In this document: piece by piece, positions 1 through 3,000 of the stretch | How positions within the stretch are numbered: position 1 is the first letter of the stretch | Layout: the number at the start of each line of letters is the position of its first letter | Virus record (IMG/VR): IMGVR_UViG_2541047434_000024 | Length of the DNA stretch: 16,532 nt | Strand: one strand, 5' to 3' | Origin: a virus | Taxonomy: Duplodnaviria > Heunggongvirae > Uroviricota > Caudoviricetes | Program-made: the position numbers

Positions 1-3000
1 GCCCGGCCAGTACGATGACGTAGTACCAATCCGGCTCAGATGAAGGGCCGACCTGTGGCTCTCCTTCAATAGCCACCGCCTGCATCAGTGTGTACGGCGT
101 AATGGCAACCGGTCCGCCGTATGGCTGCCAGCCCTCTTTCAGTTTGTGTGTCAGCTTTTCCGCAAGGTCTGACGGCGACGCCGCCCTGACAACATCATAA
201 TGTTTAATCGACATCGAATTTCTCCCGTGTACAGGAACAGAGTTAAAAAGCCGGAACCGGAATCAAATCACAGGATGACCATCTGCCAGTGGCTGGTCGT
301 AAAAAAAAGCCGCGCCATGCGCAGCCGGAAATAAAGGGATAACGATGATAGTTTGAGAAAAACAGAAACAACACTTTTGTGGCAAAGCATGGTGCCGGGT
401 GCCTCCCGGTGAATTCAGTACCAGCACCTGAATCCGCGATTATCCCATATACCTGGTTGCTGATCGCCCCTCCGCACAGGGGGATTCACCATGCAGAAGT
501 GTTTTTAATAAACAGCAAACAAAAAAATCAAGCATTATGCAGGCTGTTTCTTTTTATCACCGGCCACAGCAATACCACAATGCCGCAGACCAGCACCCCA
601 TCCGCCAGCACCGACATGATTCTGCTGGTGAAATCCACCATCACCACCAGAAACAGCAGGAGTGCAGCCACAGCCAGGCGCAGTTTTACCGTCACAGGTG
701 ATTCTCCAGACGAAGACCCAGAACACCGGCAATCTCTTCCAGCACCTTGCGCTCTTCCGGCTCAATTTCGCCGTCTGCCTCCGCAATGGCCACCGCCACA
801 TCCAGCACATCTTCCGCTTCACGCGTATCGTGTTTCACATCCTCAATCTCACGTAACGCCGCACGACGACCAGTTTTAAAGTTCGTATCCAGCTGACCGA
901 TAATGGTTGCGCTAATCGCATTAATTTCTGACGTAAACGCGGACAGCGCAGGCTGATTACGCAGTACCTGTTCGATCTTCGCTTTCTCGGATGCCTCACA
1001 TTCACCATCTGCACAGGCCACCAGGTATGCGGCGTTAATCACCACCTGTGCCAGATCGCGTTTTTCAAACTTTTTAATTTCCGTTGCCGCTCTGCGGGTT
1101 TTCTTTTTGAAGATTCCAAACATCGTGACGTTCCTTTGGGTGGGTGAGCCAACGCCCGGGAGCGATCTGCCCACAGAGAAAGTCACACTGACCACTCCGT
1201 AAGCTCACCCCCGAAAGGCTCTGTGGTTGGTATGCGCCGGGCGTGGCGCAGATACAAAAAAGGCCCGCCGAAGCGAGCCTGGAAAATAAGTGTGGCGCGT
1301 TGTAGTGGAGTCGAACCACTGACCGATTGCTTAGAAGGCAATTGCTCTGTCCGGCTGAGCTAACAACGCAGAATACCGATAATGGACCGCCATCGGGGAC
1401 CCGGCCCCGCACCAACAACCCTGTTATGGTGTCGTCTGCTCTTCCTGATAAGCTAATGGCGGTTTGTGATGGTGGCCCTTGCTGGATTTGAACCAGCGAC
1501 CTGGCGATTATGAGTCGCTCGCTCTCACCACTGAGCTAAAGGGCCGAGCCAAAAAATAATAATCAGATGAAAATCAATAATCAAGCCCTTGCCTGGATAC
1601 ATATCTGTCTGGCGGGAAGCCATAATAGCGGTGAAATACAGAAATAAAGTAGGACCGGCTTGAATAACCACATTTTTCTGCTACAGCCTGTCCATATCCA
1701 TACCGGGAACATAACATATTTACAGCAACACGCATCCGCTCTTCCAGCAACAAGCGACTGAACATGCCCCCTTCATTTTTCAGTTTTGTCTTTAACAAAC
1801 TCTCACTCATATGCAACTGTAGAGCAATCGCACCAAGCGTCCAGCTTGCTGATATATCTGTCTGAATTATCGCCCTGACTTTGGCACTTATGCTGGATAA
1901 ACATCCACTTAAAAACAATGACATCCGTTCATCTGTTTCAAACAGAGACAGGCAGGCCATCATAAGAAACATATCCGTGACCTCTCCGGAAAATCCCTGG
2001 CTGGTAATTAAAGCCGCAGCCAACGCAGGATTGTTGGGTTCCAGCAACAGGTAAAGCGGAATGTCAGTCAGACGAGTCCTCGTCAGCTTATGCTGACTTT
2101 CCAGATATTGACTTACGACGGATTCGCTTATATCGACAATTTTAACTTTGCCATAATGCATAAGGAAAAGCTCCCTGATGCATTTGGTGGCCAGAACGAC
2201 TGAGCCTGGCTTAAGTGACAACGTATCCTTTTCAAGAAAAATATTAATTGGGGAGCAAACCATGATAACTGAACAGACAACAGCCATTATAATTTTACTT
2301 TCATTAGCAATTGGTTAGCTCAATTATAGCCCCAAAAGGTAAATTATCATCAACACATAAGCAAAGGACTGACAGGTGCCGCCCCCCCCACCAGCCGCCC
2401 ATTTACCACAAATAAAAAGCCTTCAGGACTGAATGCGTCTGTAACAACCGCACTGATAGTCTGCCAGACCCGCCATAACCAGCTGGGTCAGTATTAACTG
2501 GCAGCGTTCGCGTGAAAGGTAAGTATTCTGCGCAATCTCCCCGACTGTCGCCGGTTCGGTAACGCTTAATTCATTAAACACCACTCTGGCGGTTTCTGTC
2601 ATATCCTGCTGTTTTAGCATGTCTTTTTCCCTTTTCCGGTTAACGTGACATACCAATAACTCTTGTCGAAAAAGCCAGCAAGTTGAAAGACCGGTATTAG
2701 CAACCACCAGCGCGTTTAACGCCCCGTGCCGTTTTTCAGTCATAAAAAAACCCGCAAAAAGCGGGCTCTTTCAAATGTCCATGTCTGCTATTCGCCTCGC
2801 GGTACAGCTTTGCGAAGCTTACCGGAATTGAAGCAGTTTTTACGTCAAAAAGCAATAACTTTTTTCTCTATACCAAAAGCCATAACCATTGGTTTGTACA
2901 AAATAAATTCTGCCACCTTTAGCCAATGCTCAATGCGTCTTTCACAGGTTCTTAAACTCCATTCCGGATGTGCATCATTCAGCAATTCAGCCATTTTGCG

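Follow-up and report, generated by a model that had tools for sequence, protein, structure and literature searches.

The psrB cassette of an Sp11-type lambdoid prophage of Escherichia coli O157:H7: gene content, modular structure and predicted transcription

Gene content and identity of the psrB locus

We analysed the 16,532-nucleotide virus record IMGVR_UViG_2541047434_000024 (hereafter the window, meaning this whole stretch), in which a gene for an AraC-family regulator lies, together with a short open reading frame (orf65) and tRNA genes, between a late antiterminator gene and a TerB-like gene. A previous sequence-only reading had proposed a 65-aa protein with a strong Shine-Dalgarno sequence, the regulator, a tRNA-Ile2(CAU), a tRNA-Arg(UCU), a Q-proximal terminator and a TerB-like gene in this region, and all of them are present at 1293-2743 and in its flanks, on the minus strand. 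In descending coordinates, the order is Q-like gene, terminator, orf65, psrB, tRNA-Ile2 (ileZ), tRNA-Arg(UCU) (argO), a second terminator, the TerB gene and a DUF3927 gene, with 135 bp between orf65 and psrB, 28 bp between psrB and ileZ, and a gap of 100 bp between ileZ and argO. The region is, with high confidence, the moron cassette containing psrB in a lambdoid prophage of the Sp11 type from E. coli O157:H7 (O-island 57, OI-57, in strain EDL933), for which we propose the transcription scheme discussed below.

This identification is based on sequence identity and on published primers. Positions 600-3500 are 100% identical to more than 20 O157:H7 genomes, including those of Sakai (prophage Sp11) and EDL933 (OI-57), and 339 complete-genome records contain this 2.9-kb region at 99% identity or more. 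For the whole window (1-16532), the nearest complete E. coli genomes carry O157:H7 Sp11-type prophages with 99.7-99.8% identity, none in the collection reaching 100%. Across positions 1-16026, the window and Sakai share 99.68% identity, with 38 mismatches and 2 gaps; past window position 16026, Sakai contains an IS629. In Sakai, the genes of the region are annotated successively as ECs2193 "phage antiterminator", ECs2192 hypothetical, ECs2191 "phage regulatory protein", ileZ5, argO5 and ECs2190 "TciA/TerB-like", with holin, endolysin and Rz genes downstream on the same strand. The primers were taken from a table for EDL933 OI-57 that also gives gene coordinates (PMC4763077). The pairs for Z2093, Z2094, Z2100, Z2101, Z2102 and Z2104 all match the window, reproducing exactly the published amplicon sizes and the EDL933 inter-gene distances; the Z2104 pair lies within the AraC gene, where it delimits an amplicon of 158 bp (1870-2027), and the Z2102 pair falls at 3107-3229, inside the Q-like gene. 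Z2104 of OI-57 is PsrB, the "prophage-encoded secretion regulator B" (PMC10877973, PMC8565820). Therefore, the complete identity to Sakai and EDL933, the exact primer spacing and the naming of Z2104 in these reviews together show that the AraC gene at 1574-2287 is Z2104/ECs2191, that is, PsrB. The locus tag ECs2191 itself was not mentioned anywhere in our full-text literature search. The gene pchB (ECs2182) is located about 7 kb downstream of psrB, also within Sp11, consistent with the published association between Psr and Pch regulators. The psrB locus has thus already been characterised, and ileZ and argO are well known from lambdoid prophages of enterohaemorrhagic E. coli.

The features of the locus, with the evidence for each, are the following.

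2845-3399, minus strand: Q-like late antiterminator (ECs2193/Z2102) of the DUF1133 type, upstream boundary of the slot (Pfam, PHROG, Z2102 primers)
2816-2855, minus strand: predicted late promoter pR' (conserved elements in three DUF1133-type Q loci)
2744-2769, minus strand: tR'-like intrinsic terminator, the "Q-proximal" one (RNA fold, compensatory stem changes)
2423-2620, minus strand: orf65 (ECs2192), 65 aa, stand-alone winged-helix protein (AlphaFold2, Foldseek, PHROG 331)
2323-2350, minus strand: candidate sigma-70 promoter of psrB, ATGATA-16-TATAAT (consensus scan, conservation)
1574-2287, minus strand: psrB (Z2104/ECs2191), AraC/XylS regulator, 237 aa (Pfam, primers, identity to Sakai and EDL933)
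1556-1584, minus strand: candidate tRNA promoter, TTGATT-17-TATTAT, inside the 3' end of psrB (consensus scan, conservation)
1470-1545, minus strand: ileZ, tRNA-Ile2(CAU) (ARAGORN, Rfam, Sakai and PGAP annotation)
1370-1469, minus strand: decayed argN, tRNA-Arg(UCG) pseudogene (alignment to intact argN of related loci)
1293-1369, minus strand: argO, tRNA-Arg(UCU) (ARAGORN, Rfam; argO5 in Sakai)
1256-1280, minus strand: intrinsic terminator closing the cassette (terminator scan, fold)
692-1123, minus strand: TerB/TciA-like gene (Pfam TerB, 9e-14)
528-695, minus strand: DUF3927/TciB-like gene (with the TerB gene, PHROGs 632 and 1470)

PsrB is a phage-borne AraC/XylS regulator

The psrB product matches Pfam HTH_AraC in two stretches (50 bits, cut-off 26.6) and HTH_18 over residues 155-230 (37.8 bits, cut-off 33.6), and it is assigned to the AraC/XylS regulators because both matches exceed the Pfam cut-offs. 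Homologues were retrieved in our search from Escherichia and Shigella only, ranging from 100% down to 39% identity and nearly all of them 236-244 aa long; among 13 homologues, residues 139-229 contain many invariant columns. The Pfam matches and this alignment show an intact helix-turn-helix domain, so that the truncated or inactive domain that the sequence-only reading had allowed for is not what the gene encodes. The description of the regulator as AT-rich is correct in a moderate sense only: its 44% GC is lower than that of most neighbouring genes (51-56%), but the Q gene itself has 45%.

The two available gene models differ in length. In Sakai, ECs2191 is annotated with 195 aa (window 1574-2161), while the PGAP model has 237 aa. 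Conservation of the first 42 residues of the latter (MAVVCSVIMVCSPINIFLEKD...) extends to homologues with as little as 39% identity, with M1, V3, C5, S6 and K20 being invariant. Therefore, the 237-aa model is the right one, and the Sakai model is N-terminally truncated through a wrong start codon.

Among NCBIfam models, PsrB is best matched by YdeO, followed by GadX. The assignment to YdeO was rejected, as the equivalog model NF007407 gives 106.1 bits (E = 2.1e-30, residues 1-229) against a cut-off of 348; the GadX model aligns to the C-terminal half (E = 9e-25) with 87 bits against a cut-off of 500. With scores so far under the equivalog cut-offs, PsrB is related to YdeO and GadX but represents a distinct phage-borne subfamily, PHROG 1450.

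PsrA and PsrB are AraC-like regulators known from prophages only, where they are linked to effector loci and to Pch regulators (PMC10877973, PMC8565820). They raise the expression of GadE and YhiF, leading to repression of type III secretion by the LEE (locus of enterocyte effacement) (PMC10877973, PMC8565820), and PsrB binds to the promoters of hdeA (-132 to -45) and of gadE (PMC10877973, PMC8565820; reviews citing Tree 2011 and Yang 2015). PsrB also activates glutamate-dependent acid resistance, makes cells more resistant at pH 2.5-3.5 and facilitates their passage through the mouse stomach (PMC10877973). The same target regulon, gadE and acid resistance system 2 (AR2), is shared by YdeO, GadX, GadW and AppY (PMC10057817). 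It had been suggested from the sequence that the regulator, like other prophage AraC-like proteins, may act on host targets. The gene is PsrB itself, one of the regulators alluded to, and the published activation of gadE and hdeA (PMC10877973, PMC8565820) bears the suggestion out while depriving it of novelty. PsrB is part of a documented link between O157:H7 prophages and the glutamate decarboxylase (GAD) acid-resistance and LEE network of the host, relevant to stomach passage and colonisation, and its recovery from sequence alone indicates that such a reading picks up genuine lysogenic-conversion regulators.

Two intact tRNA genes and a decayed third

ARAGORN predicts a tRNA with a CAT anticodon at 1470-1545 and a tRNA-Arg(TCT) at 1293-1369, scoring 72.5 and 67.3 bits, respectively, with the Rfam tRNA model. 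The first matches K-12 ileX at 68 of 76 positions, some of the 8 differences being compensatory changes in stems, and the two agree throughout the anticodon arm and at the pairs C4-G69 and C5-G68. It is labelled tRNA-Ile by both Sakai (ileZ5) and PGAP, and the "Met" label given by ARAGORN reflects the anticodon only. The match to ileX and the two annotations therefore identify it as tRNA-Ile2 rather than tRNA-Met; judging from its sequence, ileZ is expected to read AUA after lysidine modification. The tRNA-Arg(UCU) encoded by argO reads AGA.

In related loci, the genes ileZ, argN(TCG) and argO(TCT) follow each other with spacers of 7-13 nt. The 100-nt gap between ileZ and argO in the window aligns to argN and retains both halves of its acceptor stem; its anticodon arm has an altered sequence with 3 inserted nucleotides, and in the T-loop TTCGA is replaced by CCGGG. 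This remnant (1370-1469) can still be folded into a cloverleaf-like structure, and it yielded neither an ARAGORN call nor an Rfam tRNA match at E <= 1. A functional argN was therefore rejected because the T-loop motif is lost, the anticodon arm is altered and the tRNA finders are negative, and argN is considered a pseudogene in Sp11. The two tRNA genes noticed before are intact, and the decayed third gene between them had been overlooked.

The codons AUA and AGA are rare in E. coli, and AGG belongs to the same rare class and is read by a different tRNA. In psrB, ATA accounts for 4 of the 14 isoleucine codons, and AGA and AGG for 1 and 4 of the 13 arginine codons, respectively. Other genes of the prophage are similarly rich in such codons, which fits the usual view that these tRNAs support the translation of rare-codon phage genes.

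The predicted late promoter and its leader RNA

The Q-like protein matches Pfam DUF1133 over the full model (3.7e-105) and Phage_antitermQ more weakly (5.9e-8), and belongs to PHROG 753, "anti-termination protein Q-like". A candidate pR' is found just after the gene, composed of TTGCTT (2855-2850), a 17-nt spacer and the extended -10 element TGcTTCAAT (hexamer 2832-2827); it is followed at 2821-2816 by a second -10-like sequence, TAAGCT, a possible sigma-dependent pause element. The same series is shared 3' of the Q stop codon by three DUF1133-type Q loci, one of them in a Salmonella prophage: TTGCTT, TTGCAA or TTGAAA, a 17-nt spacer, TGnTTCAAT or TTGAAT, TAAGCT or TAGGCT, and a terminator. 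From the conservation of these elements, we predict a pR' from which transcription would start near 2819, giving a leader of about 75 nt that ends at the terminator.

The terminator that would end this RNA, here called tR', is located at 2744-2769 and consists of the hairpin AGAGCCCGC-UUUUU-GCGGG and a U7 stretch behind it. As RNA, region 2735-2850 folds with an energy of -37.6 kcal/mol (z = -3.2). Across related loci, the sequence of the stem varies with compensatory changes, and the hairpin and the T-run are kept in every version. Neither a terminator scan, nor folds, nor locus comparison revealed a further terminator between tR' and psrB, including the orf65-psrB spacer. The lambdoid late-operon layout is present, with Q, a predicted promoter, an intrinsic terminator and downstream genes co-oriented toward the lysis genes. 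In phages encoding Shiga toxin (Stx), pR' is constitutive and its transcription is terminated at tR', StxS being the pR'-tR' RNA, while Q allows reading through tR' (PMC7547250).

A membership of the leader in the IsrK family was also considered and rejected, given that the Rfam isrK model (RF01394) matches 2745-2818 with only 19.8 bits (E = 0.17) against a gathering threshold of 50; the analogy with IsrK is positional only.

Orf65, a widespread winged-helix protein of the late region

The strong Shine-Dalgarno sequence attributed to the 65-aa protein was confirmed, as AAGGGA lies seven bases 5' of the ATG. A longer, 106-aa reading starting at 2743 was rejected since the upstream ATG is lost in relatives, which also carry indels there, and the start of the 65-aa frame is conserved. 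The protein belongs to PHROG 331, of unknown function, and we found 302 homologues across Enterobacteriaceae (E. coli, Salmonella, Klebsiella, Citrobacter and Buttiauxella), those aligned having at least 78% identity. Its AlphaFold2 model has a mean predicted local distance difference test (pLDDT) score of 90 and a topology of three helices followed by a beta-hairpin. Foldseek searches of the PDB and BFVD retrieve generic winged-helix matches only (TM 0.7-0.8, E ~1e-3), including the winged helix-turn-helix domains of IclR, MarR and OhrR regulators, the dimerisation domains of O-methyltransferases and viral Z-alpha-like domains. The modelled fold suggests that the orf65 product is probably a nucleic-acid binder. 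The TrmB family label (PF01978) carried by some NCBI records was rejected, as the match of 16.7 bits (E = 0.0066) is below the gathering threshold of 25.6, and orf65 had no match in NCBIfam.

In prophages of Salmonella, Klebsiella and E. coli, orf65 can also be the first gene after Q and the terminator with no psr gene, being followed about 150 bp on by an orphan N6_N4 DNA methyltransferase. Because the methyltransferase replaces psr in these loci, orf65 must be seen as a widespread first gene of the late region that is not specifically tied to psr. According to blastn, the homology between the psr-type and the methylase-type loci ends at window position 2387, upstream of the psrB promoter candidate.

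These observations bear on the idea that orf65 and psrB form one regulatory unit, in which the winged-helix protein would control the adjacent downstream gene in the manner of a controller (C) protein. The constant position of orf65, which always precedes a variable cargo gene (psr or the N6_N4 methyltransferase) by 135-150 bp, is in line with it, as are the confident winged helix-turn-helix fold and the very high sequence conservation. Nevertheless, since the homology between both types of loci ends at 2387, before the psrB promoter candidate, no common operator travels with orf65. Moreover, orf65 is frameshifted next to an intact psr in the EDL933 psr locus at 1.27 Mb, psr is far from orf65 in another of the loci compared (L010), and the fold matches are to generic winged helices at E ~1e-3. 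We therefore regard such a unit as improbable.

The psr cassette as a mosaic module

The contexts of PsrB homologues at 91%, 78% and 58% identity were inspected, and their loci were compared with the window by blastn. A conserved block extends from 2755, in the T-run of the upstream terminator, to about 1253, taking in a strongly conserved leader, orf65, psr and ileZ-argN-argO and ending at the downstream terminator. The homology to other psr cassettes ends at 1245-1283, where the downstream terminator (1256-1280) is formed by an 8-bp stem with 6 GC pairs and a T-run (fold -15.8 kcal/mol). From this comparison, orf65-psr-ileZ-argN-argO appears as a terminator-bounded module of about 1.5 kb inserted in the lambdoid slot between Q and the lysis genes. 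The block follows four unrelated Q families (DUF1133, PF06530, PF06323 and PF03589), and some loci contain interposed cargo, for example a CPBP protease or TfpB.

Two of these related loci deserve attention. In phage phiSTEC1575-Stx2k (OQ243220, 16390-19071) and related contigs, a 91-92% identical cassette lies directly upstream of stx2k A/B, which gives substance to the earlier analogy with the slot that holds tRNA and toxin genes in Stx phages. In this arrangement, an AraC regulator of the GAD and type III secretion network would be co-transcribed with the toxin on induction. The second locus is a paralogue in EDL933 at 1.266 Mb (L016, CP008957 1,260,407-1,270,807), whose product is 90.7% identical to PsrB and which has a PerC/Pch gene adjacent; 90.7% is also the literature value for PsrA versus PsrB. 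The psrA gene (Z1789) has been placed in OI-50/CP-933N (PMC10877973, PMC8565820). In OI-50 of the resequenced EDL933 (CP008957 1,625,000-1,675,000, with nleL, espN and espK), we found no AraC gene, and tblastn with PsrB retrieved nothing.

A more ambitious interpretation is that the psr cassette is a portable "late-operon leader module" (tR', leader, orf65, psr and rare-codon tRNAs) that ties induction to a burst of PsrB, Orf65 being an unrecognised late-phase regulator common to many enterobacterial lambdoid prophages and paired with psr or with the orphan DNA methyltransferase. We consider this speculative and rather unlikely. If true, the module would couple induction, including the transcription of the Stx2k toxin, to the reprogramming of acid resistance and type III secretion.

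Beyond the cassette, the TerB/DUF3927 pair is absent from this position in the paralogous EDL933 locus at 1.27 Mb and in a further psr locus (L014), and from this distribution both genes represent a separate moron, inserted in the window after the tRNA cassette and before the esterase and lysis genes.

Immediately downstream of the DUF3927/TciB-like gene and ahead of the esterase and lysis genes, a full-length match to the Rfam small RNA STnc100 is found at 351-523 on the minus strand (102.7 bits, threshold 47). Elsewhere in the window, the sok antitoxin RNA of a hok/mok locus (5839-6013, minus strand, 113.5 bits) and the small RNA DicF beside a dicB-like gene (13236-13287, plus strand, 76.7 bits) are also matched above their Rfam gathering thresholds.

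Proposed transcription of psrB in lysogens and after induction

Two candidate promoters are located within the cassette. The one upstream of psrB (ATGATA-16-TATAAT) agrees with the consensus at 10 of 12 positions, and psr loci with as little as 78% protein identity retain its -10 element in the form TATAAT or TATACT. The one preceding the tRNA genes (TTGATT-17-TATTAT) is conserved upstream of ileZ in related loci. For the Stx2a phage, a transcription start from which the tRNAs are expressed has been mapped between tR' and stx2AB (PMC7547250).

In the scheme that we propose, a constitutive pR' just after Q would produce a short RNA ending at tR' (2744-2769). The promoters at 2350..2323 and 1584..1556 would provide weak transcription of psrB and of the tRNAs, respectively, in the lysogen. 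Upon induction, Q-modified polymerase starting at pR' would continue through tR', orf65, psrB, the tRNAs and the second terminator into the TerB and lysis genes, and PsrB would then also be part of the late transcript. Such a polymerase would transcribe orf65, psrB and the tRNAs because no terminator separates tR' from psrB. In turn, Q-independent expression is plausible because candidate promoters lie just upstream of psrB and ileZ. Therefore, the late control put forward by the sequence-only reading is plausible as one input to PsrB, and expression in lysogens from its own promoter, independently of Q, is equally plausible.

Several points weigh against this scheme. All promoters, as well as the Q-dependent read-through at the psrB locus, are predictions, and the pR' candidate was not reported by a generic consensus promoter scan. 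In Sakai, both int and exo of Sp11 carry a pseudogene annotation, which makes the production of Q from this prophage uncertain. The function of PsrB is taken from two reviews and from the AppY paper (PMC10057817). Finally, deletion of psrB alters secretion only slightly, while psrB supplied in trans represses it (PMC8565820). Given this small effect, native psrB may be nearly silent in laboratory conditions, which fits late-only expression, H-NS silencing or a weak promoter of its own alike.

The deletion result is also what could be expected if psrB were strictly late, that is, if it had no functional promoter of its own and were made only through Q antitermination of pR' transcription after prophage induction; in that case, the action of PsrB would be limited to the minority of cells undergoing induction, or would depend on cross-activation of the locus by the Q of another prophage. 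The gene is co-oriented with the late operon, no terminator was found between tR' and psrB, and the same cassette occupies a Q-dependent position in the stx2k transcript, all of which is compatible with this possibility. However, a conserved TATAAT with an acceptable -35 is found about 30 nt upstream of the psrB start codon, where the spacer is psr-specific, and the tRNAs in the same slot of the Stx2a phage have their own mapped start site (PMC7547250). Furthermore, a PsrA deletion has a phenotype in uninduced cultures (PMC10877973, PMC8565820), which means that lysogens express at least one psr gene. Overall, strictly late expression, together with action confined to induced or cross-activated cells, is a tentative possibility, and we retain dual control, by Q and by a promoter of its own, as the preferred reading.

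The degenerate argN, the int and exo pseudogenes of Sp11 in Sakai and the reported lack of a secretion effect of the psrB deletion could also be taken as signs that the cassette is, in Sp11-type prophages, a decaying remnant of no functional relevance. This is very unlikely: psrB, orf65, ileZ, argO and Q are all intact in the 2.9-kb region, which is so well conserved among the 339 records cited above, and expressed PsrB is reportedly active in acid resistance, mouse stomach survival and DNA binding (PMC10877973).

What is new here is modest, and consists of the correction of the PsrB annotation from 195 to 237 aa, the modular nature of the cassette with its linkage to stx2k, the decayed argN and the uncharacterised winged-helix protein Orf65.

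Comparison with known systems

One known counterpart of the locus is the EDL933 paralogue at 1.266 Mb, which has the same orf65-psr-ileZ-argN-argO layout as the window but differs in its PF06530 Q, in the presence of a CPBP protease gene, in an intact argN and in a frameshifted orf65. At the protein level, PsrA (Z1789), other Psr paralogues and PatE (Z0321) are, like PsrB, prophage-borne AraC-like regulators of the GAD acid-resistance island. In contrast to the phage-borne PsrB, the AraC/XylS regulators YdeO, GadX, GadW and AppY are chromosomal or encoded in DLP12.

The predicted leader of about 75 nt has counterparts in IsrK, StxS and the lambda 6S RNA, which are short terminated transcripts of late promoters; it matches them by position and as a prediction only. 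IsrK of Gifsy-1 is, in the same way, located directly downstream of a Q-like gene.

The arrangement is reminiscent of the Stx phages 933W/Sp5 and H-19B/Sp15, in which the same tRNA species are found in the same order and in the same slot, downstream of Q and tR' and upstream of the lysis genes. In contrast to these phages, the locus described here carries no toxin genes, its argN is decayed, its Q is of the DUF1133 type, and orf65 and psrB are placed between tR' and the tRNAs.

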